Positions 5,245 to 56,476 of a stretch of DNA of 64,000 nt are shown here, in pieces. The notes beneath the pieces were generated by a model, which was not told where the DNA came from, did no database searches, and saw only the letters and a program-made list of their open reading frames with translations. The position numbers and the translations under genes are program-made. The stretch spans positions 63,750 through 127,749 of the forward strand of contig CAYPAI010000001.1 in assembly GCA_964408705.1 (NCBI GenBank). Direction: 5' to 3'. The DNA is from Candidatus Woesearchaeota archaeon (lineage in GTDB: Archaea; Nanobdellota; Nanobdellia; SCGC-AAA011-G17; PNOQ01). Numbering within the stretch: the first letter of the stretch is position 1; each line of letters opens with the position of its first letter.

Positions 5245-6006
5245 ATGGAACGAAGAAGAAAACCTAAATTTCAACATAAAAAACTTAGTGAAAAAGAAAG
5301 GCAAGCGGCAATTAGAGAAAGAGTTATCTCTGAGTGGGTTCCAAAAACAGAGTTAGGTAAAAAGGTAAAGTCAGGAGAAATAACAGAGATAGATAATGTA
5401 CTAGATAGTGGTATGAAAATTCTTGAACCACAAATAGTTGATGTATTATTACCCGATTTGGAATATGATTTGATTACAGTAGGGCAATCTAAAGGTAAGT
5501 TTGGGGGAGGCAAGAGGAGTATATGGAAGCAAACCCAGAAAAAAACTAGTGAAGGGAATAAACCTAAATTTTCAACTATTGCAATAGTTGGAAATAGAAA
5601 TGGTTATGTTGGCCTAGGAAGAGGTAAGGCTAAAGAGACTGTTCCTGCTAGGGAAAAAGCAATACGTAATGCTAAACTTAGTTTGATGAAATTAAGAAGA
5701 GGATGTGGTTCTTGGGAAGGTGTTCCTGGTACAAACTCAATTCCTTTTGAAACTCAGGGGAGATGTGGTTCCGTCAGGTTGAGATTGATTCCTGCACCTT
5801 CAGGAACAGGATTAGTTGCACATAAAGAAATACAAAAAATATTAAAATTTGCAGGAATCAAAGATGTGTATTCAAAAACAAAAGGTCAAACTAAGACTCA
5901 AATAAACTTAGTAAAGGCATGTATCCAAGCCTTCAAAAATCTAAATTCAATGAAAGTAAAAAAAGAAATGATAAGTGTTGTGGGATTGAAGGAAGGTAAA
6001 ATATGA
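5245..6006 (+). CDS. rps5: 30S ribosomal protein S5 (uS5)
   Basis: 253 aa; S5 dsRBD and C-terminal motifs (VGNRNGYVGLGRGKAKE, GSVRLRLIPAPSGTGLVA). Confidence 0.85.
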   Translation: MERRRKPKFQHKKLSEKERQAAIRERVISEWVPKTELGKKVKSGEITEIDNVLDSGMKILEPQIVDVLLPDLEYDLITVGQSKGKFGGGKRSIWKQTQKKTSEGNKPKFSTIAIVGNRNGYVGLGRGKAKETVPAREKAIRNAKLSLMKLRRGCGSWEGVPGTNSIPFETQGRCGSVRLRLIPAPSGTGLVAHKEIQKILKFAGIKDVYSKTKGQTKTQINLVKACIQAFKNLNSMKVKKEMISVVGLKEGKI

Positions 6007-33566: not shown

Positions 33567-35888
33567 CTAACCACAACAACATCTTATTCCACAATCAAAA
33601 GGTCCATAACAATAATCATCCCCCCAATCATCAAAATCTGTATTACACCCCAGAGGATATTGTACTTCAAATTGGCAAAGATCATAATAATTAGTTGCCT
33701 CATACCAATATGACATATCATGATTACAACTATCTGGCGAGTTTCCTCCGTAATACTTCCATCCTCCGCCTGATTGATCTACGTCTCCCATCATATACCA
33801 CCAGTTTATATAATTACCCCATTGACAGTTGTCTTGGCAATTAAGTCCTTTACTTTGGCAGAACTCCTCACAATTTCCTTCATTTAATTCGTCCTGGTTA
33901 CAATCATGCTCAAAAGTGAACGGAGTTTGTTCCCCATGATGATCATACAATTGTCCTCCTGGATAAGGTGCAGAGCCATCTGGACAATGAGGATAACCGT
34001 CTTCTTGATCACCATTCCAATCACAATCATAAACTTCTGAGTCTTGTGTTCCTTCTGGATAAGTAGAATAACTTACTGGCCATCCTTGATGCTCATGACA
34101 ATTGTTTGGCCAGTTTCCCCAAGTTGAACTCCATCCGCACTCGCTATGGCATACTTCATACCAATTATTCCCAGATAATTCACAACCAGGCCCTCCCCAT
34201 TCGGCATCTCCATTACAAACTCCTGCGCAGTCAAATTCTCCAAACCCTCCACACTCTCCCGTGCAATCTGATTGGGAGTTTCCACCACAAGTCCCTGTAC
34301 AGTCTATTTCTAATCCTCCTCCGCACTGTCCTGAACAGTCTGCCCAAACATCTCCTTCTACTTCACAAACACAACTACCATGCTGGTTAGTATTTACTCC
34401 ATCTCCATTACATACTCCACAATCATCCCTTTCTGAAGATCCTCCACAAACTCCAAAACAATCTTGTTCTGCATTGCCCCCACACTGTCCTGAACAGTCT
34501 GCCCAAACATCTCCTTCTACTTCACAAACACAACTACCATGCTGGTTAGTATTTACTCCATCTCCATTACATACTCCACAATCATCTATTTCGGCTGAAC
34601 CTGCACAAATACCAAAACAATCTTGTTCTGAATTACCCCCACATTGTCCTGCACAATCTACTTCTGTGTCTCCGTCACACACGCCTGCACAATCTTCACA
34701 GCTAGAGTGGCAACTATCAAGATAATATCCACAAAAGCCACATTCATCTAGCACTTTAGTTCCCCCACAAACTCCTGCACAATCTACTTCCTGTGTACAT
34801 TCTCCATCGCAATCATACTGATTGTCTGGATAGTTCTCAGGGTATATGCAACTTGTTGATGTTGTTGCAGTATTTTGATAATTACACCCATCTTCATCAG
34901 TGCATCCTGAATAAGTTGTATGGAAGCAATTACCCCATTCCGTAGGAATTTGTGACCCAGTAGTATCTGAAATAATTCTGGCATTGTTATTGTCAAAACA
35001 AACCTCAGAACCTATCGAACTATACTCAATTTCTAAAATTAATTGTGTTTCTTTATTTATTGTTAGTTCAGACGATCCACACTCTATACAATCGGCAGGT
35101 ATAACTTGACCACTTATTGAAAATGCGAGAACCATAGGATTTCCTGCTTTAGAAGATATTATAAAATCATTCTCCTCAACACTCCCTCCTGACACATCTT
35201 CTAATTCAAGTCCTTCAACATTAAATTGTATTCCTGCGACATTCGTATTGCTAGTCATATAAACCTTTATTTTTTTGTTGATTGTATCTACTTCTAGTAT
35301 TTCAACTTTCGCAGCAGGTTCAGTCCTTAGTGGGTCTTCTTCTGGAAAGTTTGCATCCACATTCGTGCCAGTGTAAAGAACAGGATCTAAAACATCATAC
35401 ACAGACAATGCCTCTGCATCTGCATAGTGGTCACAAATCCAAGTTTCGCCCTGGTGATGACCATACCTTATACAATTTGCCATTTTAATGTACCAAGGGG
35501 TACCTCCTCCTCCACTTTCTTCACAATCACAAGTCTCGCAATTCATACACTCATCTTGGCCATTTACGTTGCAAGAATTACAACAAACACAATTACTTCC
35601 CAGATTTGCACCCACTATCCCTTTAGGTTTTTCAACAAAACAATCTTCACCTTTAAATTCGTGTGGTCCAAATCTTTCCCAACCTTTGCACGAAATTCCT
35701 TTCTTTATTAATTCAAATGAAGAAGGCGCATTACCTTGGATCCTATCTATCTCTAAACTTATACGTTCAACAATTCTTTGGACAGCATTATCTCTGGGGT
35801 CTTGAGATTGCCTAGAAAACTCGGTACATCCTGAAATAAATAAAATACTGATTAATAATAAACTTAAAACTAAATTACCTCTTTTCAT
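33567..35888 (-). CDS. Large secreted/surface Cys-rich repeat protein with cohesin-like domain (putative lipoprotein)
   Basis: 773 aa; signal peptide with lipobox-like ISGC. Dozens of CxGxCGG...DxCGVCNGDG Asp-rich, Ca-binding-like repeats. The central segment resembles a cohesin/Ig-like beta-sandwich (VEILEVDTINKKIKVYMTSNTNVAGIQFNVEGLELEDV). More than 100 Cys in total. Confidence 0.6.
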   Translation of the reverse strand: MKRGNLVLSLLLISILFISGCTEFSRQSQDPRDNAVQRIVERISLEIDRIQGNAPSSFELIKKGISCKGWERFGPHEFKGEDCFVEKPKGIVGANLGSNCVCCNSCNVNGQDECMNCETCDCEESGGGGTPWYIKMANCIRYGHHQGETWICDHYADAEALSVYDVLDPVLYTGTNVDANFPEEDPLRTEPAAKVEILEVDTINKKIKVYMTSNTNVAGIQFNVEGLELEDVSGGSVEENDFIISSKAGNPMVLAFSISGQVIPADCIECGSSELTINKETQLILEIEYSSIGSEVCFDNNNARIISDTTGSQIPTEWGNCFHTTYSGCTDEDGCNYQNTATTSTSCIYPENYPDNQYDCDGECTQEVDCAGVCGGTKVLDECGFCGYYLDSCHSSCEDCAGVCDGDTEVDCAGQCGGNSEQDCFGICAGSAEIDDCGVCNGDGVNTNQHGSCVCEVEGDVWADCSGQCGGNAEQDCFGVCGGSSERDDCGVCNGDGVNTNQHGSCVCEVEGDVWADCSGQCGGGLEIDCTGTCGGNSQSDCTGECGGFGEFDCAGVCNGDAEWGGPGCELSGNNWYEVCHSECGWSSTWGNWPNNCHEHQGWPVSYSTYPEGTQDSEVYDCDWNGDQEDGYPHCPDGSAPYPGGQLYDHHGEQTPFTFEHDCNQDELNEGNCEEFCQSKGLNCQDNCQWGNYINWWYMMGDVDQSGGGWKYYGGNSPDSCNHDMSYWYEATNYYDLCQFEVQYPLGCNTDFDDWGDDYCYGPFDCGIRCCCG
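34300..34700. repeat. Near-identical tandem direct repeat (~157-bp unit, ~2.5 copies) inside the Cys-rich protein gene
   Basis: Two ~110-bp blocks (about 34326-34437 and 34483-34590) are almost identical (ctgtcctgaacagtctgcccaaacatctccttctacttcacaaacacaactaccatgctggttagtatttactccatctccattacatactccacaatcatc). A partial third copy follows. Confidence 0.7.
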
Positions 35889-35921
35889 ACTTTTTTAAAT
35901 ATATTTCCATATATAAAATTA

Positions 35922-35996
35922 TGGGCCCGATGGGATTTGAACCCACGACCCCTTGGTTAAGAGCCAAGTGCTCTAACCAAACTGAGCTACGGACCC
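35922..35996 (-). tRNA. tRNA-Lys (anticodon CTT)
   Basis: Hand-folded 75-nt cloverleaf. Acceptor GGGUCCG/CGGGCCC, D-arm GCTC-AGTTTGGTTA-GAGC, anticodon stem CTTGG/CCAAG with loop CTCTTAA, T-arm GTGGG-TTCAAAT-CCCAT, discriminator A. Confidence 0.8.
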
Positions 35997-36090
35997 ATAA
36001 AAAAAGTTAAATTATTTCATTTAAAAAAGTACCTACTTTTTAGTTTGAAATTACAAAAAATATAAAAACCACATATATTCTTCTAATTAT

Positions 36091-38645: not shown

Positions 38646-38837
38646 AACCTTTAATCAATAATTAAAGATTATAAGTCTTGAATATTTTAGGTTTTGATTA
38701 AAAGTTATATCATTAATATAACTTAAAAGTTTTAAGCAATAATTAAATCTAAGTGACTTTACTGTTTTATCGTCGGAAAATTAAAAAAGTTTATATATGG
38801 GTTAGACTATTTTTATGTCATTATAGACATCAAGGAG

Positions 38838-39104
38838 GTGAATAGTTTGGGAAAGATTGTTGCTAAAAAAGTTGTAGAAAGGAAATCTGGTTACTTATAC
38901 TATGTAGATGGTAATGGTAATGTTTGTGAAGCTAAAATGGCTAGAGGTGGTAAAAAGAAGAAAGCCGTAGCTAAGAAAAAAGCTGTTAAGAAAAAAGCTG
39001 TAGCTAAGAAAAAAGTAGTTAAGAAGAAAGCAGTTAAGAAGAAAGCAGTTAAGAAGAAAGCAGTTAAGAAGAAAGCAGTTAAGAAGAAGAAGAAGAAGAA
39101 GTAA
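38838..39104 (+). CDS. Small nucleic-acid-binding-like protein with histone-H1-like K/A repeat tail
   Basis: 88 aa; GTG start with a strong GGAGGTG Shine-Dalgarno sequence. The ~35-aa N-domain (KIVAKKVVERKSGYLYYVDGNGNVCEAKMARGG) is followed by (KKKAV)n repeats and a poly-K end. Confidence 0.5.
   Translation: MNSLGKIVAKKVVERKSGYLYYVDGNGNVCEAKMARGGKKKKAVAKKKAVKKKAVAKKKVVKKKAVKKKAVKKKAVKKKAVKKKKKKK
39021..39101 (+). repeat. 15-bp tandem repeat x4 plus (aag)7 inside the K/A-tail gene
   Basis: aagaagaaagcagtt occurs four times in tandem, then aagaagaagaagaagaagaag. Confidence 0.7.
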
Positions 39105-39142
39105 TTTCTTCTTTTTAAAATTATAAAGGGGGTTTAACTTTA

Positions 39143-39382
39143 ATGAGTTTTAGTTTGATTTTAGGATTTTTAGGACTATTTATTATCTTTATTGCATATG
39201 TACTGAACAATTGGAATAAATTTAAAAAAAACAAGAGATATTTCTATTTACTCAATATTCTTGGTTCTTGTTTTTTAGCATATTACTCTTTCGAAATATC
39301 TAGTATACCTTTTTTAATTTTACAAGTGTTTTGGATTTTAGCTTCATTATACTCTTTATTTTTTGATTCTAGCAAGGTATAA
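39143..39382 (+). CDS. Small two-TM membrane protein
   Basis: 79 aa; two hydrophobic helices; SD-like AAGGGGG upstream. Confidence 0.35.
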   Translation: MSFSLILGFLGLFIIFIAYVLNNWNKFKKNKRYFYLLNILGSCFLAYYSFEISSIPFLILQVFWILASLYSLFFDSSKV

Positions 39383-45909: not shown

Positions 45910-45952
45910 ATTTAAAATGGGAGATGTGTTTTTTTAAATCTTGCTGAAGATA

Positions 45953-46216
45953 TTAAATAATATCTTCTTCAGAAACAACAACAAAATCGCCTACAGCAAT
46001 AACTGAACTATGTGGGACTAATAAATTTCCATGATCGTCCCTTTCTAAATCTAAGTTATCTGCCAAGTGTGTTGGGTTCCTTAATTCAAGATTTAAAATC
46101 TCACCTGTTCGGGATTCGAAAACAATATTTCCGACTTCTCCAAACTTTTTGCCAGTTTTACTGACAACTGTTTTCCCTAAGATTTGTTTTGAATATTTTC
46201 TTTCTTCGCTTGCCAT
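45953..46216 (-). CDS. PRC-barrel domain protein
   Basis: 87 aa; ILGKTVVSKTGKKFGEVGNIVFESRTGEILNLEL pattern. Confidence 0.55.
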   Translation of the reverse strand: MASEERKYSKQILGKTVVSKTGKKFGEVGNIVFESRTGEILNLELRNPTHLADNLDLERDDHGNLLVPHSSVIAVGDFVVVSEEDII

Positions 46217-46267
46217 GATATAAAGGGTAAGTATTAATTGTTTATAAAATTTTTCTTAAAATAGAAG

Positions 46268-46558
46268 TTATTTTACAGTATCTTCTATATACTCTTTACT
46301 ACTTTCTAAAACGTTTTCTATGATCTCTACATCTTTTATTTCTTCTACTATTGCTGCACCAGTCTGTATAATTTCATTATCAGTGCTTATTTTACTTTCA
46401 GAATTTATTGCACCAATTACAAATAGAAATGCAACAGATATTATTAATATTACTAGTACTGATTTTGCAAAAGTTTTTACGAAAATATGTTTAGACATCT
46501 CTAAGACTAGTAATGAAATAATTAAAACAACTATTATAGTTAATACTTCCATAATCAA
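46268..46558 (-). CDS. Small membrane protein
   Basis: 96 aa; two TM helices plus an acidic tail. Confidence 0.35.
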   Translation of the reverse strand: MIMEVLTIIVVLIISLLVLEMSKHIFVKTFAKSVLVILIISVAFLFVIGAINSESKISTDNEIIQTGAAIVEEIKDVEIIENVLESSKEYIEDTVK

Positions 46559-46559
46559 G

Positions 46560-47022
46560 ATTTAATTTATCTAGTATTTAAATATATTGTTAAGGTACTA
46601 CCCCCTCACCTACTTTTCAAATGGAAATCCTATATTTTTTAGATTTTGATTTTTTTCCCTTGGAAAATGTCTAATCTTTTCTTGATTTTATGTATTTTTT
46701 TAAGGATATATCGTCTATAAAACTTGAATATTTTTTTTATTTATTTTTTTAAAGTATTTCTTAACTAGAAGCCGTAATATACCATTATTTTTAAGAATTG
46801 ATATTTTTGTTTTTAAATTTTAATTTATATGTTTTATTATTATATTATATTTATATTGTAATTTATATTTTTTATACTGTTACTACTTTTTAGTTTCCAA
46901 AAGAAAAGTAGGTGTTTAGTTTGAGGATGTTGTTATTTTTTGTTTCCACAGGAAATATAGGCCTCAGGGTATATTTCATAATATGAAAATTCTTAAATAA
47001 TAATTTTGAGTAAACTTTCAGA
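46560..47022. other. Predicted chromosomal replication origin (oriC) with ORB-like dyads and AT-rich DUE
   Basis: A 460-bp noncoding region directly upstream of orc1/cdc6. Perfect dyads TTTTCC-CTT-GGAAAA (46653-46667) and TTTCC-ACA-GGAAA (46943-46955), matching the archaeal mini-ORB core (TTCCAnnGGAAA). Half-site GTTTCCAAAAGAAAAG at 46893-46908. A ~150-bp stretch of more than 90% A+T lies between them (46735-46890). Confidence 0.5.
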
Positions 47023-48231
47023 ATGGTAAAGGAAGACATAAGTGGTTTTTTTGAAGAATATCTTTCTAAAGAATCTATTTTTAAAAATAAAAAAGTTTTA
47101 CAATTTAGCCATACCCCTGACAACATCCCCCACAGAGAAGAGCAAATAAAAGAGATTGCATCAATTCTTGCACCTTCATTAAGAGGTGAAAAACCTTCCA
47201 ACCTTTTCTTATATGGTAAAACTGGTACAGGTAAGACACTTTCAATGTTTCATGTTATCAAGAATTTGGAAAAAATTGCAAAAACCAAAAAAATAGGTTT
47301 AAAAGTTTTTTATCTGAACTGTAAACTAAAACGAGTTGCAGATACAGAATATAGATTAATTGCTGCACTTGCGAGAGATTTTGGTGAAGATGTTCCAATT
47401 ACAGGATTACCCACTGATGAGATATACAGGATATTTATGGAAAGGATAGATAGAAAAGAGATGAATTTAATTTTAGTTTTGGATGAGATTGATCAACTAG
47501 TCAAAAAAGCAGGAGATGAAATATTATATAACCTTACTAGGATAAACTCCGAATTAAAAAAAACACAAATAACTGTAGTTGGAATATCTAACGATCTGCA
47601 ATTTGCTAATTATTTGGACCCAAGGGTTAAATCTTCCTTAACTGAAGAAGATATCAACTTCCCATCATATAATGCATTACAATTGCAAGACATCCTATCA
47701 GAAAGGGCCAAGTCTGCCTTCAAAAGTAAAGTAGTTGAAGAAGGAGTTATAAGTAAATGTGCAGCTTATGCTGCGAGGGAACATGGGGATGCAAGAAGGG
47801 CATTAGATTTACTAAGAGTTGCAGGAGAGTTGGCTGAAAGAAATAATGAAAGCAAGCTTAAGATAGATTTTATTGATAATGCTGAAGAAAAAATAGAGAG
47901 AGATTTAATATATGATGTCATAAAAACATTACCAAAACAGTCTCAAGCAACACTTCTTGCAATTTTTAAGTTGAACCGAGACTCACAAGATAAGATTTTA
48001 ACAGGAGATGTTTATGAAACTTACAAGTCTTATTGTATTGCTTCAGGTCTAAAAACACTAACTCAAAGAAGGCTATCTGATCTTATTGCAGAGTTAGATT
48101 TATTGGGAATAATTAATGCGAGAGTTGTTAGCAAAGGAAGATATGGAAGGACAAGGGAAATAAAGTTGGCAGTGCCACAAACTAATTTACCTTCATTAAA
48201 TAAGGAGTTAAAAGGATGGTTGGGACTGTAA
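47023..48231 (+). CDS. cdc6: Orc1/Cdc6 replication initiator
   Basis: 402 aa; AAA+ Walker A (LFLYGKTGTGKT), Walker B (LVLDEID) and a C-terminal winged helix. Confidence 0.9.
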   Translation: MVKEDISGFFEEYLSKESIFKNKKVLQFSHTPDNIPHREEQIKEIASILAPSLRGEKPSNLFLYGKTGTGKTLSMFHVIKNLEKIAKTKKIGLKVFYLNCKLKRVADTEYRLIAALARDFGEDVPITGLPTDEIYRIFMERIDRKEMNLILVLDEIDQLVKKAGDEILYNLTRINSELKKTQITVVGISNDLQFANYLDPRVKSSLTEEDINFPSYNALQLQDILSERAKSAFKSKVVEEGVISKCAAYAAREHGDARRALDLLRVAGELAERNNESKLKIDFIDNAEEKIERDLIYDVIKTLPKQSQATLLAIFKLNRDSQDKILTGDVYETYKSYCIASGLKTLTQRRLSDLIAELDLLGIINARVVSKGRYGRTREIKLAVPQTNLPSLNKELKGWLGL

Positions 48232-49853
48232 ATGAAAAAATAACTAACCTCCTGAAGAAAGGATTTTTAGTTGGTCCAGATTTAATTAAGGAGTTAGAGG
48301 ATCCAAACTTAGATACATTAAGTGACATACCTTATGAAGATCGGCCTTCAGTAATAACAAAAGACATCCATGATTATTTTTTAAAAAAACCAAATAAAAT
48401 AAATATCTCTTGGAAGGATTTTGAAAAAGCAAGAGTTAATTTTGAAAAAGGCAAAGATAAGAAAACCTATCCTTCCTTGCTAAAGTTAACAAATTATAAA
48501 GATAATAAGGAAAAGTTAGACAAGCTCTTGAGTGAAGTTAAAAAACCAGTTAAGCCCATTATATCTCTTGAGAAAAATCCTTCTACTGTTCCAATTGTTT
48601 TGAGGAATTATACAGATAAAAAAACAAAGATTAATGTTAATACTTTTGTTGAACATTATAAACTAAGATATAACTTCTTGAGGAAACTGTTACAGGCCAG
48701 GCAAGACCTGAGTGGTGCAGTGTCTATAGATAGATTGAACCATCGGCGTAAAGGAGATAAAGTTTCTACAATTGGGATGGTCTATTCTAAAGAATATACA
48801 AAAAATAAGCACCTCCTCCTTGAAATAGAAGATATTACTGGTAGGGTAAAATGTTTAGTTATGAATTCTAAAAAAGATCTTTTTGAACTTTCTAAAGATA
48901 TTGTGTGTGATGAAGTGATAGGGTTGAAAGGGACAGCAGGAGATGGCCTAATATTTATTGAAAATGTTTATTTTCCAGATGTTCCTGCCGGAGAAATTAT
49001 TAAAAAAGGGCAGAAGGAAGAATATATAGCATTTATTTCAGATATCCAAATAGGTTCCAAAAAATTTCTTAAGAAGAGTTTTATGAGATTTATAGACTGG
49101 ATAAATGGAGAATATGGTTCAAAGGAACAAAAAGAAGAAGCATTAAAAATAAAATACTTGTGTGTAGTTGGAGATGTTGTAGATGGAGTAGGAATATATC
49201 CAGGACAAGAATCAGATTTAGAGATAAAAGATATTTATGATCAATATAAGGAGTGTGCAAATGTTTTTTCAAAGATAAGGAAAGACATACACATAATTAT
49301 ATCTCCAGGGAACCATGATGCCGTCAGATTGGCAGAACCTCAACCTGTTTTTGAAAGAAGCATGTCGGAGGATTTGTGGGAAATGGAAAATGTAACTCTT
49401 GTTACTAATCCGGCAACAGTTAATGTGGGGGCGACGGAAACATTTGAAGGACTTGATGTATTGATGTACCACGGATTTAGTTTTGATTTTTATGTAGATT
49501 ATTTAGATAATATACGGAACAAGGGGGGTTATGACAGCATTTGTGTTTTAATGAAGATGTTGCTACAAAAGAGACACCTAGCACCAACTCACACATCAAA
49601 TCTTTCAGTGATAGATCCTGAAGAAGATTATATGGTAATAGAAGATATACCCGATATTTTTGTTACAGGTCATGTGCACAAGGCAAAAATAGACCAATAT
49701 GGTAAGACTACACTAATTAATAGCAGCTGTTGGCAAGCTAAGACAGACTACGAGGAGAAGTTAGGACATACTCCTGAGCCAGCAAGAGTTGCAATAATTA
49801 ATATGAAAACAAGGGAGACAAAATTTATGAAATTTTTAGTAGAAGATGAATGA
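48216..49853 (+). CDS. dp1: DNA polymerase D small subunit (DP1, 3'-5' exonuclease)
   Basis: 545 aa; OB fold plus calcineurin-like phosphoesterase motifs (GDVVDGVG, GNHDA, GHVH). Confidence 0.85.
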   Translation: MVGTVNEKITNLLKKGFLVGPDLIKELEDPNLDTLSDIPYEDRPSVITKDIHDYFLKKPNKINISWKDFEKARVNFEKGKDKKTYPSLLKLTNYKDNKEKLDKLLSEVKKPVKPIISLEKNPSTVPIVLRNYTDKKTKINVNTFVEHYKLRYNFLRKLLQARQDLSGAVSIDRLNHRRKGDKVSTIGMVYSKEYTKNKHLLLEIEDITGRVKCLVMNSKKDLFELSKDIVCDEVIGLKGTAGDGLIFIENVYFPDVPAGEIIKKGQKEEYIAFISDIQIGSKKFLKKSFMRFIDWINGEYGSKEQKEEALKIKYLCVVGDVVDGVGIYPGQESDLEIKDIYDQYKECANVFSKIRKDIHIIISPGNHDAVRLAEPQPVFERSMSEDLWEMENVTLVTNPATVNVGATETFEGLDVLMYHGFSFDFYVDYLDNIRNKGGYDSICVLMKMLLQKRHLAPTHTSNLSVIDPEEDYMVIEDIPDIFVTGHVHKAKIDQYGKTTLINSSCWQAKTDYEEKLGHTPEPARVAIINMKTRETKFMKFLVEDE

Positions 49854-52800
49854 TTTAAATAAATATGATGAAGGCATAGATAAAAAAGTTAAAAAAGCAT
49901 ATGATCTTGCTAAATCTGCAAAGTTAAAAAGAATAGATCCTTCGGAGCGGATCGAAATACCTTTAGCTAAAAACATGGCAGAGAGGGTTGAAGGTTTGAT
50001 AGGTGTTGCTGCACCTCAAATAGTTGGGAAAGGCCTACCCCAAAGAATAGAACAATTAGAAAAAGAAAATGGGAAGTTGGATTGGAGAGTCGGATTAAAA
50101 ATAGCATACGAAGTTGCTAGTGAAAAATTTTGTAAATTTGAAGATAAAAAAGAAGCAATAGAGGTTGGTATAAGAGTGGGGTTTGCTTATGTTACTGTAG
50201 GAGTTGTAGCAAGCCCTTTAGAAGGTTTTACTGGGATAAAGATTAGAAAGAGAAAGGATGGAAAGGAATATCTTGCATTGTGCTACGCAGGGCCGGTAAG
50301 GAGTGCAGGAGGTACTGCTGCCTCTGTTTCGGTATTAATAGCAGATTATTTAAGAAAAAAAATGGACTATTCTAAGTATGATCCAACTCCTGAAGAGGTG
50401 AAGAGGGCAGTAATAGAGTTAACAGATTATCATGAGAGGATAACAAATTTACAATATTTTCCTAGTCCTGAAGAAATTGAGAACATGGTTTCAAATTTAC
50501 CTGTTCAAATAGATGGGGATCCGACCGAAAAGTTGGAAGTTTCAAACCACAAAGATTTGGATAGGATTGAAACCAATAGGATAAGAGGTGGTTTTTGTTT
50601 AGTGTTGGGGGAGTGCCTTTGCCAAAAGGCAAAGAAAGTAAATAAACAACTAGAAGATTGGGGAGACGAGTTAGGAATGGGAGATTGGGATTTTATGCAT
50701 TCTTTTTGTAAAATTCAAACAAAATTAAAAGCAAAAGAAAAAGGTATACAAGATTCAACTGAAAAAATTTCACCAGACTTTACTTTCATAAAAGATATTG
50801 TTGCAGGAAGGCCCGTTTTAACATACCCTTTGAGAGAAGGTGGATTTAGATTAAGATATGGGCGTTCGAGAACTACTGGGCTTAGCTCAGTGGCTATACA
50901 CCCTTTAACTATGAAGATCCTTAATAATTACATTGCAATAGGTACTCAACTCAAAATGGAGAGGCCAGGAAAAGGAACTGCCTTAAGTTCTTGTGATTCA
51001 ATAGAAGGCCCAATTGTAAGATTAGACAACGGGGAAGTTATTTTTTTAAAAGAAGAAGACTATGATAAATTTAAAAATAACATAGATAAGATCTTGTTTT
51101 TAGGAGACATATTAATTCCCTATGGAGATTTTTTGAATAGAGCACATGTGTTAGTCCCTCCAGGGTATTGTGAAGAATGGTGGATAAAAGAAATAAAAAA
51201 TAAAAAAAGATCCCCTCAAGAGTTAGAAGTTGAAACAAAGATTAACCTTTCATTGTTGAAACAACTATACAATGACCCTATAAAAACAAATATTTCTGTA
51301 AAAGATTCTTTTACTATTTCTGAAAAGTTGGGAGTCCCGTTTCACCCAAAATATACATTCCATTGGAAAGATATCTCTGTAAAAGAATTATTAATCCTTT
51401 TGAGCAAAGTTATAAAATCTACTATAAAACGAGGAGAGGAGTTTAAATTAATTTTTCCACTACATGAAGAAGAATTAGAAAAACATATTTCTCTTAAAAA
51501 GATTCTTGAAAAAGTAGGCGTTCCTCATAAATTAGTTTCTAATGAATATTTAATAATTGAAAAAGAATGGGCAGAGTCTTTTTTGGTAAATCTTGGATTG
51601 TACAAAGAGGGGGCTGATTTAAAAAAAACCATAGAAGAAATAGATACTTCTAATGAAGTTTTACAAATAATAAATAATCTTTCTGAAATAAAAATAAGGG
51701 ATAAATCTGGAGTTTTCGTTGGTGCAAGAATGGGTAGGCCTGAAAAGGCAAAAATACGTAAATTAAAAGGTAGCCCCCACGTATTGTTTCCAGTAGGTAA
51801 TGAAGGGGGTAGATTAAGATGTTTCCAATCTGCATTGGAGAAAGGAAAAATTAATGCAGAGTTTCCCCTCAAACATTGTGAAAAGTGCGATATAGAGACA
51901 GTATATCCTTCTTGTCAAACTTGTAAAAATAAAACTACTCCAAGATATTATTGTAGACTTTGTAAAAAGGTTTTAAGCGAAGAGGTTTGTCCAAACCATG
52001 GAAAAGGGACAAACTATAATTTTAGGAGTATAAATATTTCTGAGTATTATTCTAGTTCTTTAAAAAAGCTAGGAATAAACAATTCTCCCGATTTAGTAAA
52101 GGGTGTGAGGGGAATGTCTAGTGATAGCAAAGATGTTGAAAATTTGTCTAAAGGATTACTTAGGGCAATACACAATATTCATGTAAACAAAGATGGTACA
52201 GTTAGGTATGATATGACGGAATTAGCATTAACACACTTTAAACCTAAGGAAGTTGGAACTAGTGTAGAAAAATTAATTAAACTGGGATATACTAAAGATG
52301 TTTTAGGAAAAGAATTAACCGACGAAGACCAAATTTTACAAATTTATCCTCAAGATGTTATTTTGCCTTCATGCGAAGAATCAAATGAAGAAGGTTGCGA
52401 TTCAATAATGTATAGAGTTTCTAAGTTTGTAGATGATTTATTGAAACATGTTTATGGGTCAAGTCCATTCTATGAGTTAAAATCTAAATCAGATCTAGTT
52501 GGTCACCTTGTTATAAGTCTTGCACCTCACACTTCTGCAGGAGTGGTAGGAAGGATAATAGGTTTTTCAAAAACCCAAGGAGGTTATGCTAGTCCGATTT
52601 GGCATTGTGCTCAAAGAAGAGATTGCGATGGAGATGAGTGCGGGATCATGTTGTTAATGGATGGTTTATTAAATTTTTCAAGGAAGTATTTACCAGGTCA
52701 CAGGGGTGCAACTCAAGATGCCCCGCTTGTGCTAACTTCAAAAGTTATCTTAACTGAAGTTGATGATATGGTTTTTGATATGGATACTGAATGGGAGTAT

Positions 52801-53370
52801 CCTCTCGAATTTTATGAAGCATGTGAAGAGTATAAGATGCCATGGGACATTAAAATAAAAAAAATAGGTGACAATCTTGAAAATTTTGGAGAATTTATAA
52901 TTGGATATACTCACGAAACAGATAACTTAAACGATGGAGTAAGATATAGTGCCTATAAGCAAATTCCAACGATGCAAGAGAAAGTTCTTGGCCAGATGGA
53001 TCTTGCCGAAAAAATAAGGGCAGTTGATGAAGATGATGTTGCAAGACTAGTAATAGACCGGCATTTCATCAGAGACATAAAAGGTAATCTTAGGAAGTTT
53101 AGTATGCAGGAGTTTAGATGTGTGGCTTGTAATACAAAATATAGGAGGACACCTCTTAATGGAAAGTGCACTAATTGCAAGGGCAAACTTATTTTTACTA
53201 TTTCAGAAGGTAGTGTTACAAAATATTTGATGCCTTCATTACAACTTGCAGAAAAATATAATCTTCCAGAATATACTTCCCAAACTTTAGACTTACTTAA
53301 AAGAAGAATAGAGAGTTTTTTTGGAAAAGAAGAAGACAGGCAAGAAGGGTTAAGTAGGTGGGTTCTTTGA
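49846..53370 (+). CDS. dp2: DNA polymerase D large subunit (DP2)
   Basis: 1174 aa; conserved DP2 segments and Cys clusters (CEKCDIETVYPSCQTC, CRLCKK...CPNHG, CVACNTK...CTNCKG). No intein. Confidence 0.85.
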   Translation: MNDLNKYDEGIDKKVKKAYDLAKSAKLKRIDPSERIEIPLAKNMAERVEGLIGVAAPQIVGKGLPQRIEQLEKENGKLDWRVGLKIAYEVASEKFCKFEDKKEAIEVGIRVGFAYVTVGVVASPLEGFTGIKIRKRKDGKEYLALCYAGPVRSAGGTAASVSVLIADYLRKKMDYSKYDPTPEEVKRAVIELTDYHERITNLQYFPSPEEIENMVSNLPVQIDGDPTEKLEVSNHKDLDRIETNRIRGGFCLVLGECLCQKAKKVNKQLEDWGDELGMGDWDFMHSFCKIQTKLKAKEKGIQDSTEKISPDFTFIKDIVAGRPVLTYPLREGGFRLRYGRSRTTGLSSVAIHPLTMKILNNYIAIGTQLKMERPGKGTALSSCDSIEGPIVRLDNGEVIFLKEEDYDKFKNNIDKILFLGDILIPYGDFLNRAHVLVPPGYCEEWWIKEIKNKKRSPQELEVETKINLSLLKQLYNDPIKTNISVKDSFTISEKLGVPFHPKYTFHWKDISVKELLILLSKVIKSTIKRGEEFKLIFPLHEEELEKHISLKKILEKVGVPHKLVSNEYLIIEKEWAESFLVNLGLYKEGADLKKTIEEIDTSNEVLQIINNLSEIKIRDKSGVFVGARMGRPEKAKIRKLKGSPHVLFPVGNEGGRLRCFQSALEKGKINAEFPLKHCEKCDIETVYPSCQTCKNKTTPRYYCRLCKKVLSEEVCPNHGKGTNYNFRSINISEYYSSSLKKLGINNSPDLVKGVRGMSSDSKDVENLSKGLLRAIHNIHVNKDGTVRYDMTELALTHFKPKEVGTSVEKLIKLGYTKDVLGKELTDEDQILQIYPQDVILPSCEESNEEGCDSIMYRVSKFVDDLLKHVYGSSPFYELKSKSDLVGHLVISLAPHTSAGVVGRIIGFSKTQGGYASPIWHCAQRRDCDGDECGIMLLMDGLLNFSRKYLPGHRGATQDAPLVLTSKVILTEVDDMVFDMDTEWEYPLEFYEACEEYKMPWDIKIKKIGDNLENFGEFIIGYTHETDNLNDGVRYSAYKQIPTMQEKVLGQMDLAEKIRAVDEDDVARLVIDRHFIRDIKGNLRKFSMQEFRCVACNTKYRRTPLNGKCTNCKGKLIFTISEGSVTKYLMPSLQLAEKYNLPEYTSQTLDLLKRRIESFFGKEEDRQEGLSRWVL

Positions 53371-55216: not shown

Positions 55217-56476
55217 GTGATGGATAAAGGACTTAAAAAAAGTTGGTTGCCTTTAGCAATATTATTAGGAATAGTTTTATCTATGATCTTAGGTACAATT
55301 TATGGCATAGATATATTTCCTAAACGGAACCCCACTATGCCTGAAGAAGGTTGTATTTCTATTTTAGACCGGGGAAATTATCAAGATACGATAGACATTG
55401 TTTTTTTATCAACAAATTATGAAGATGTACCTACATATGCAGAGGATACTCTTGTTTTTTTTGAATCATTTTTAGAAGTTGAACCTTACAAAAGGAATAA
55501 AGATAGGTTTAATTTTTTTAGAATAGAAGAGCCAGGTTTAGATCTTGGGTGCAACTACGAACATGATGCTGTTGTATGTGATCCTTCTAAAGTTAAAAAA
55601 GCTGCAAGCATTTGTCCTTATGATTATCCTGTAGTATTAGTAGATCCAAGGGGTGTTAAGAAATTTAAATCCCATTTAAGGTCTAGTTCGTGGAGAGGAG
55701 TGGTTTCGGTTAATGCTAATGATGATCCTCTTGTGTTTGCCCATGAAGCAGGACACCAAATGTCTGCATTGTTGGATGAGTACACTTGGCAAGGGGGGAC
55801 AATATTTATAGAAGGTCCTAATTGTGATTCAGATAAGCAAAAGTGTTCTAAGTTTGAAGATGTGGATGGTTCCGAGTGTCATATAGGGTGTGTAAATAAC
55901 GAACACGCTAGGCCAGTAGAAGTAGGTATAATGAGAGACTATTGGCAATCTAATAGTTTTGGAGAATATGATGAATATATTATTCATCAGTCTATCCTTG
56001 AGCAGACTGAATTTTCCGAGTATGTACTTCCTAATGAAAATTTAGAGTTATCTCCTATTGAATCATCTCAGGAAGTAGATATTGTCACATTTTCTTGTGG
56101 CCTCAAATTTGGAGAAGTTCAAGAGTCTTGTGAGATTTTGGAGATTTTACCTGGAAGAGGTTATGTTAGTGATATGTTGGGAGATGATTTAACAATTTCA
56201 AATGGAGATTATAGTGTAGGAGTTAGTTATGGGGATATTCGGGATGTATTAATAGTAGAAGGATATAATCCTGAAAAAGGAGAGTTTAGTTTTGAGTATA
56301 AATTTATTGATTTTGAAGATGTTGTGATTTTGCCTAGAGAGAAAGAAGGGGGAATTATAAGTATAATTGGAGAAGGTGGGGTAGTCCTTGATTCAACAGA
56401 GTATGGCTTAGACCAAGATGGAGCAAATTATATAATTAGCGAGCCAGTTTCATTAAATATACCTGAAGTAGTTTAG
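55217..56476 (+). CDS. Membrane-anchored HExxH zinc metallopeptidase, M64-like
   Basis: 419 aa; N-terminal TM anchor; HEAGHQMSALLDEY resembles the M64 HExxH...GL(A)DEY signature; Cys-rich, acidic C-terminal region. Confidence 0.5.
   Translation: MMDKGLKKSWLPLAILLGIVLSMILGTIYGIDIFPKRNPTMPEEGCISILDRGNYQDTIDIVFLSTNYEDVPTYAEDTLVFFESFLEVEPYKRNKDRFNFFRIEEPGLDLGCNYEHDAVVCDPSKVKKAASICPYDYPVVLVDPRGVKKFKSHLRSSSWRGVVSVNANDDPLVFAHEAGHQMSALLDEYTWQGGTIFIEGPNCDSDKQKCSKFEDVDGSECHIGCVNNEHARPVEVGIMRDYWQSNSFGEYDEYIIHQSILEQTEFSEYVLPNENLELSPIESSQEVDIVTFSCGLKFGEVQESCEILEILPGRGYVSDMLGDDLTISNGDYSVGVSYGDIRDVLIVEGYNPEKGEFSFEYKFIDFEDVVILPREKEGGIISIIGEGGVVLDSTEYGLDQDGANYIISEPVSLNIPEVV

Follow-up and report, generated by a model that had tools for sequence, protein, structure and literature searches.

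The DNA analysed here is a 64,000-nucleotide stretch (hereafter the window) of contig CAYPAI010000001.1 from a Candidatus Woesearchaeota archaeon, and its subject is a gene on the minus strand that encodes a Cys/Gly/Asp-rich predicted lipoprotein of 773 amino acids (aa). An earlier note, made from the letters of the DNA, had drawn attention to this gene as a candidate surface lipoprotein. The protein belongs to a known kind, that of modular surface proteins of archaea carrying a non-cellulosomal cohesin, and what is new are two undescribed modules, a 12-residue Cys repeat and a C-terminal head. The gene and the regions of its product are listed here with their coordinates in the window and the basis of each assignment:

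33567..35888, minus strand: entire gene, with its stop codon, of the 773-aa predicted lipoprotein rich in Cys, Gly and Asp (list of open reading frames, ORFs)
35826..35888, minus strand: signal peptide with lipobox, aa 1–21, MKRGNLVLSLLLISILFISG followed by the lipobox Cys (sequence and the relatives P0002 and P0047)
35337..35825, minus strand: N-terminal domain, aa 22–184, with 12 Cys (regional sharing with relatives)
34899..35336, minus strand: cohesin-fold beta-sandwich domain, aa 185–330
34815..34898, minus strand: short linker with Cys and Tyr, aa 331–358 (domain alignments)
34197..34814, minus strand: Cys-rich repeat region, aa 359–564 (alignments of the units and of the region)
33570..34196, minus strand: C-terminal head domain, aa 565–773 (homology searches)

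The ORF begins with MKRGNLVLSLLLISILFISGC, in which Lys/Arg residues and a hydrophobic stretch precede the lipobox I-S-G-C at aa 18–21 (signal letters LFISGC). This is an archaeal lipobox-lipoprotein signal under the definition of PMC12462473 (a charged n-region, a hydrophobic h-region and [LVI][ASTVI][GAS]C), as had been proposed from the first inspection, and no other ORF in the window carries either a lipobox-type signal or a Cys motif of the C-x-G-x-C type. In DPANN archaea lipobox proteins are predicted to be widespread, and the lipidation enzyme AliA has been reported from them (PMC12462473). Given this signal, lipidation of Cys21 most likely anchors the protein to the outside of the membrane.

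In composition the protein is an extreme outlier, as the earlier note had stated, although its figure of >100 Cys was too high: there are 73 Cys (9.4%, versus 0.8% ± 0.9% in the 47 other long ORFs of the window), and it is Gly that numbers 100 (12.9%; mean of the other ORFs, 6.3%). Trp is likewise enriched (19 residues, 2.5%; mean 0.7%) and Lys plus Arg depleted (29 of 773, 3.8%; mean 15.4%), while Asp and Glu together number 132 and the isoelectric point of the mature protein is ~4.05. Counted from the Cys positions, 72 Cys are left after that of the lipobox, an even number and thus compatible with full disulfide pairing.

The middle domain (aa 185–330) follows the motif (V/I)AGFQF...GG...GF..S...V.GFS..G..IP. 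The full-length protein matched 168 database proteins at E ≤ 1e-3, a similarity far beyond chance, with E falling to 1e-104 outside its own cluster. Among the best 120 of these, phmmer located the middle domain in 37, as 97 copies in all and at most six in one protein. A pair of Cys is nearly invariant across the alignment, and the window protein has an extra insertion containing C-x2-C. AlphaFold2 applied to alignment A1 (26 copies) gave a confident model (predicted local distance difference test, pLDDT, 93; predicted template modelling score, pTM, 0.86), a nine-stranded beta-sandwich (jelly-roll) that can be superposed on solved cohesins, and the top 18 Foldseek matches in the PDB were all cohesins (E from 3e-5 to 1.4e-3). 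At the sequence level, the A1 profile found a single meaningful match in the PDB, the Ruminococcus flavefaciens ScaB cohesin 5n5p_A, which is borderline (E = 9.8e-4, 21.9 bits), and at E ≤ 1 the 26 copies matched only four unrelated Pfam families, with one sequence each (E = 0.03–0.17). The cohesin-like middle domain suggested in the earlier note is therefore upheld at the level of the fold: the structural model supports the assignment of aa 185–330 to the cohesin fold, with membership of the family by sequence being borderline. The cohesin fold is used for protein–protein docking. Compared with the known cohesins considered, namely cellulosomal types I–III and the non-cellulosomal examples from Archaeoglobus fulgidus (2xdh) and Clostridium perfringens (2vo8 and 2w1n), the domain differs in the near-invariant Cys pair, in its position between Cys-rich repeats and in having no match to Pfam Cohesin, a model that misses this widespread marine domain family.

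A single copy of the cohesin-like domain also occurs in a 1,262-aa protein encoded at 265..4053 of L060 (IMGVR_UViG_2802429398_000006), a 112-kb sequence classed as viral. This copy, EIAGFQFEVAGAEVV...GFTLS...VIAFNMGGGSIPAG, has 35% identity to the window domain over 78 residues.

Beyond the linker, aa 359–564 contain 34 Cys, 42 Gly and 42 Asp plus Glu in 206 residues. The region consists of ~14 units of the form D-C-x-G-x-C-G-G-x4, interspersed with units of the form D-D-C-G-V-C-N-G-D-G...C-V-C. In alignment A2 of the 12-residue unit (D-C-x-G-x-C-G-G-x-x-E-x), D1, G4 and C6 are invariant and G8 is nearly so. The Cys are arranged in 12 C-x3-C, 4 C-x2-C and 2 C-x-C motifs; across the whole protein there are two copies of CGVCNGDG (aa 437 and 490) and ten of C-x-G-x-C-x-G. 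Some bacterial homologues consist almost wholly of DCAGVCxGxAxx arrays. The 12-residue repeat has no match in Pfam or NCBIfam, and a profile of the region (A3, 20 sequences) finds no PDB sequence at E ≤ 10. Modelled alone by AlphaFold2, the region is elongated, with isolated beta-bridges every six residues and no helices, but confidence is low (pLDDT 65, pTM 0.27), and a Foldseek search with this model gave no significant fold match (best E = 3). A literature search with the repeat motif strings and sample accessions turned up no publication containing them.

These repeats had been likened to the calcium-binding repeats of thrombospondin type 3 and of dockerins, which are similarly short, Asp/Gly-rich, acidic and extracellular. 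The likeness does not extend further. Thrombospondin type-3 repeats (PF02412) have D-x-D-x-D-G-x-x-D loops, whereas the window repeat conserves a single Asp per unit and matches nothing in Pfam, among PDB sequences or by fold. Dockerins of type I (PF00404) consist of paired helical EF-hands, whereas the window repeat has no Pfam match, no D-x-N-x-D-G-x-I-x-x-x-D loop by regular-expression search and no helices in its low-confidence model. We therefore rejected both identities, and calcium binding, though conceivable, is not supported because dockerin helices and D-x-D-x-D-G loops are both lacking.

The even number of Cys, together with the use of these repeats as linkers between domains of secreted enzymes, fits a disulfide-braced spacer; given the low confidence of the model, both the rod shape and the disulfide bracing are inferences. 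With two Cys per ~12 residues and a Cys-rich extracellular rod or coat, the region recalls other disulfide-braced repeat proteins of short period, namely the 12-residue beta-helix of the Tenebrio antifreeze protein and the CXXC-rich variant surface proteins of Giardia. The likeness is one of analogy: the Cys spacing (C-x3-C in the window protein) is different, and neither sequence nor fold searches gave a match. Alternatively, the C-x3-C and C-x2-C motifs might serve extracellular thiol or metal chemistry, binding Zn, Cu, Fe or Cd or taking part in redox reactions, as metallothioneins do, instead of forming disulfides. The density of Cys motifs (34 Cys in 206 residues as C-x3-C, C-x2-C and C-x-C) and the strong acidity of the protein would suit such a role. 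We regard it as very unlikely, however, since no metal-binding family was matched in Pfam, NCBIfam or PDB sequences, an even number of Cys suits disulfides, and a structural role is suggested by the way these repeats connect domains in secreted glycoside hydrolases and in cargo of the type IX secretion system (T9SS).

The two terminal domains are much more restricted in distribution. The N-terminal domain has a Cys cluster of the form C-x-CC-x2-C-x7-C-x2-C-x2-C-x-C and is shared with only P0001 and P0002 (~45% identity) and, weakly, with P0047. It has no match in Pfam, and its word-index search came back empty although P0001 and P0002 contain the domain, which we take as a limitation of the tool and not a sign of absence. 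Against the PDB there was only an insignificant kringle-like match of 22 residues (E = 0.35), in which KKGISCKGWERFGPHEF (35690..35760, aa 57–78) resembles the kringle motif KSGIKCQPWSSMIPHEH of hepatocyte growth factor.

The C-terminal head (209 aa) is acidic and contains 19 Cys, 12 Trp and 18 Tyr, ending in ...DCGIRCCCG. It has a single relative, P0143, with 82% identity, as found by a word-index search of 5.8 billion clusters and by HMMER against 1.84 billion representatives; there is no match in the PDB or Pfam. The terminal Cys triplet (33570..33590) is also kept in P0143. MAFFT had paired ...GIRCCCG with ...SVRCIKD, prompting us to consider the head as a degenerate Fib_succ_major domain (PF09603), an identity that was rejected on an hhalign comparison of A6 with A7 (probability 0.14%, E = 0.42).

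To map the sharing of regions, the best 120 of the 168 matches were compared back to the query by BLAST. The repeat region (aa 359–560) is covered by 120 of these 120, the cohesin-like domain (aa 200–320) by about 40–85, the N terminus (aa 1–80) by the three proteins P0001, P0002 and P0047, and the last ~35 residues (aa ~740–773) by 2–3. Cohesin-like and Cys-repeat modules thus recur in >100 secreted marine proteins, and the matches with a source name come from Marinimicrobia, FCB-group or unclassified bacteria. Many combine a T9SS sorting domain (PF18962) with LTD, plastocyanin-like, GH16, GH5, pectate lyase (PL1), CBM6, CBM96, LRR, dockerin or Fib_succ_major domains. One of them, P0006, is encoded on a 1.8-Mb contig beside obg, a Por_Secre_tail protein and housekeeping genes read as bacterial. 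The Marinimicrobia/FCB proteins, many of them from TARA Oceans, share with the window protein both the cohesin-like domain (in up to six copies) and the D-C-x-G-x-C-G-G-x4 repeats, at 30–48% identity and with E reaching 1e-59. They are bacterial, T9SS-sorted and often equipped with catalytic or carbohydrate-binding domains, whereas the window protein is archaeal, lipobox-anchored and has a single cohesin-like copy between N- and C-terminal domains of its own. The 12-residue Cys/Gly repeat is a very abundant but undescribed element, joining the domains of proteins that Marinimicrobia and other marine bacteria secrete.

Cys repeats are also found in P0034 (547 aa, ≤44% identity), encoded at 6001..7644 of L061, a 435-kb sequence (ENA ERZ25039540 contig_16299). 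Nearly all neighbours of this gene are without Pfam match, the exceptions being DUF723/DUF4379 and a 2OG-Fe(II) oxygenase, and L061 may be a giant-virus-like genome.

Closer to the window protein are two unannotated metagenomic proteins, P0002, with 46% identity over aa 1–515, and P0047. Both have its signal almost letter for letter (MKRGNLxLSL..LFISGC), the cohesin-like domain and the Cys repeats, and P0002 in addition the N-terminal domain; their contigs are low in guanine plus cytosine (GC; flanks 24–26%), with a TATA-like element spaced as in the window. They differ at the C terminus, where both carry a Fib_succ_major head (PF09603) that is unrelated to the window head. Judged from these sequences, the proteins make up a small family in which the signal for export and anchoring is conserved alongside a cohesin-like domain and a Cys rod, and the heads are interchangeable. 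In the representative genomes of GTDB, 8-mer peptide patterns detected no relative of the protein, and a search of the literature on DPANN archaea with cohesin or cysteine-rich proteins found nothing relevant.

P0047 (L059, 803..3151) further combines a Pfam type-I dockerin (aa 405–449) and a cohesin-like domain in one chain, raising the possibility of docking with itself or within the family. It also bears on the main rival explanation, in which the window protein would be a cohesin–dockerin scaffold, a surface anchor whose cohesin-like module captures dockerin-bearing secreted proteins of the P0047 type. The cellulosome-like complex so assembled outside the cell would capture or degrade polysaccharides or particles and not serve host binding. 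The cohesin fold of aa 185–330 fits such a scaffold, and in several bacterial homologues dockerin, GH16, GH5, PL1, CBM6 or CBM96 domains accompany these modules. We nevertheless find this explanation rather doubtful, because the window itself contains no dockerin motif, the domain is missed by Pfam Cohesin, so that its binding face need not be conserved, and the distal head would be left unexplained.

The swapping of heads among relatives bears on a second rival, a structural envelope or S-layer-associated coat that would be abundant, protease-resistant, disulfide-rich and Giardia-like but have no specific ligand. Such a coat would be in keeping with the extreme Cys content, the acidity, the surface targeting and the repeat-rich, elongated prediction. 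Pfam and NCBIfam searches of the 773-aa protein, however, returned only a sub-threshold signal-peptide match and no S-layer, surface-array or known envelope domain, a weak test given how diverse archaeal S-layer proteins are. The gene is also the sole one of its kind in the window, and swapped heads fit binding proteins better than lattice formers, so that a coat appears quite unlikely.

Variation within the repeat region was also evident in the DNA. Tandem Repeats Finder (TRF) reported one array in the window (34324..34659; period 159 bp or 53 aa, 2.1 copies, 92% matches), within which two features can be delimited:

34485..34643 and 34326..34484 (together 34326..34643), minus strand: two tandem 159-bp units, phase arbitrary (TRF and alignment of the units)
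34483..34586 (copy 1) and 34324..34427 (copy 2), minus strand: identical 104-bp block (identity at an offset of 159)

The tandem repeat described in the earlier note thus exists, with a period of 159 bp and not ~157 bp, and so do its two near-identical blocks, which are perfectly identical over 104 bp. The recent duplication proposed for them is too simple: the units agree at 148 of 159 positions, and all 11 mismatches lie within the first 55 bp, a clustering with P ~8e-6 under uniform mutation. The unit differences are better explained by partial gene conversion or by recombination with a divergent allele. Repetition at the DNA level is limited to this central pair, the other 12-residue modules having diverged.

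A 720-aa form of the protein (P0001) is present on seven contigs, of which five were examined; it is the window protein minus exactly one 53-aa unit, with 100% identity elsewhere. One contig with this one-unit form, L001, shows no other difference from the window across 22 kb. The exact 773-aa protein occurs on two contigs (one ENA, one NCBI), one of which derives, by accession number and assembly label, from a sister sample of two samples with the 720-aa form. An intact ORF with 100% identity outside the repeat was found on at least nine contigs. The two-unit form is probably real because the bases unique to unit 2 cannot arise by collapse, while the one-unit form may be either a real allele or an assembly collapse across the identical 104-bp block.

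Taken as a whole, the architecture inclines us, by a modest margin of confidence, towards a lipid-anchored modular protein that would bind at a distance from the cell, with its ligand and a role in host attachment inferred. In this proposal, the protein would be secreted and tethered to the outer face of the membrane through lipidated Cys21. Outward from this anchor there would follow a small Cys-clustered N-terminal domain, a cohesin-fold beta-sandwich for docking, an extended, non-helical rod of ~200 residues built from 12-residue units and probably braced by disulfides, and, at the far end, the 209-residue aromatic, Cys-rich and acidic head. The rod would act as a spacer whose length changes by whole 53-residue units. 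In such binding the head could attach the cell to a particle or to the surface of a partner cell, the cohesin-like module could recruit a partner protein, or both could happen. DPANN archaea are believed to need direct contact with other cells. A docking fold, a spacer of variable length and a lineage-specific distal head are, on a judgement only a little firmer than even, most economically read as the parts of a binding protein.

Several results weigh against this proposal. The Pfam Cohesin profile (PF00963) matches neither the window protein (E ≤ 1) nor any of the 26 aligned domain copies, and identity to solved cohesins is 10–23%, so dockerin binding cannot be assumed; no dockerin motif is found in the 64-kb window. 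The model of the rod is of low confidence, the length polymorphism is possibly an assembly artefact, and both the head and the N-terminal domain are without detectable relatives of known function.

A more far-reaching version holds that the window protein, P0002, P0047 and P0143 are a DPANN-specific family of lipoproteins for recognition of hosts or partners, uniting a conserved signal peptide and lipobox, a cohesin-like docking module and a disulfide-braced rod of 12-residue repeats, the rod being of an undescribed structural class and first acquired from marine bacteria. Specificity would be altered by head swapping and reach by gain or loss of 53-residue units through recombination between the identical 104-bp blocks. 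We consider this unlikely; if it were true, heads would alternate between a new fold and the lectin-like Fib_succ_major domain, with or without a dockerin. To our knowledge, very few DPANN surface proteins have an assigned structure. The gene overturns no current ideas but is a compact candidate for structural and binding work, offering three handles: a confidently modelled cohesin-fold module, an undescribed repeat and a head with essentially no relatives.

Immediately upstream of the gene, two further features were identified:

35921..35997, minus strand: tRNA-Lys(CTT) (Rfam, 72 bits; ARAGORN)
35909..35918, minus strand: TATA-box-like TTTTATATAT, 21–30 nt upstream of the ATG

The tRNA gene ends 33 nt before the ATG and shares its strand with the Cys-rich gene. 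TTTTATATAT may be an archaeal TATA box, in which case the mRNA would have a short leader or none. Comparable T-rich, TATA-like elements precede the family members on L007 and L059, at much the same distance.

The gene also stands out in base composition, with a GC content of 0.397 (local peaks of 0.45) versus 0.31 across the window, and the 34–36 kb bin is the most GC-rich of the entire 64 kb. This contrast had been put forward as a possible sign of horizontal acquisition. An expected GC content was calculated for each gene by combining its amino-acid sequence with the synonymous codon frequencies of the other 47 ORFs. Observed and expected values for the Cys-rich gene were 0.397 and 0.398 and, at third codon positions (GC3), 0.231 and 0.233, with neighbouring genes at 0.223 ± 0.033. 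Codon choice for Cys, Asp and Asn matches the window almost exactly, and that for Gly, Glu, Ser, Val and Thr is close. The GC peak is entirely an effect of amino-acid composition, arising from Gly, Cys, Asp and Glu at codon positions 1 and 2, and since the observed GC equals that expected with native codon usage, it holds no signal of recent transfer. Native codon usage and amino-acid composition fully explain the contrast, the very outcome that the earlier note had said would count against acquisition, and the gene becomes a worked example of a local GC peak that is no evidence of gene transfer.

The view that this is a recently acquired foreign gene, and that its origin accounts for the GC contrast, is contradicted by these data and highly improbable. 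It could draw on the position of the gene at the GC maximum of the window, on the adjoining tRNA gene, on the otherwise mainly bacterial occurrence of the repeat and cohesin-like modules and on the absence of relatives by 8-mer peptide patterns among GTDB representatives. Against it stand the agreement of GC, GC3 and codon choice with the native expectation and the housekeeping flanking genes, which are syntenic on all contigs. It is plausible, however, that the cohesin-like and repeat modules came from marine bacteria in an older, by now ameliorated transfer, because the distribution of these modules is overwhelmingly bacterial; the GC signal is no sign of such an event. The region was also considered as an integrated element on account of the adjacent tRNA gene and a tyrosine recombinase ~3.6 kb away, a candidate that was rejected, there being no compositional signal. 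On the four further contigs that reach the recombinase, its length is equal and the flanking gene order and housekeeping genes are unchanged.

The surrounding genes support assignment of the host, a marine archaeon, to the Woesearchaeota type (DPANN), in line with the DPANN origin that had been presumed for the gene. Archaeal neighbours on the window and on syntenic contigs include Orc1/Cdc6, the small and large subunits of PolD, PAN, Hef, CDC48, a family-B polymerase, a PAC2 chaperone, SerRS and ArgRS. Among GTDB species representatives, the nearest relatives of the PolD large subunit, DP2, belong to metagenome-assembled genomes of Candidatus Woesearchaeota, Nanoarchaeia and Nanoarchaeota, with a best identity of 74%.

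Elsewhere in the window, a 1.1-kb AT-rich intergenic region (45910..47022) directly upstream of orc1/cdc6 is a candidate replication origin with elements resembling origin recognition boxes. Beside it, 47023..53370 contains orc1/cdc6 followed by PolD DP1 and DP2, and the candidate region includes a 21-nt inverted repeat (46607–46627 and 46894–46914; 86% complementary). GC skew is unusually high (+0.52) at 38750..39250, and two contigs that are otherwise near-identical to the window differ from it by a 15-bp indel at 39017..39031 (L002) and a 3-bp indel at ~39080 (L004). Lastly, a 419-aa ORF at 55217..56476 has a partial match to Peptidase_M64 (IgA peptidase M64; E = 8.6e-9, 35.4 bits, cutoff 26) that spans ~70 of 302 profile positions; its product may be a further protein that the archaeon secretes.

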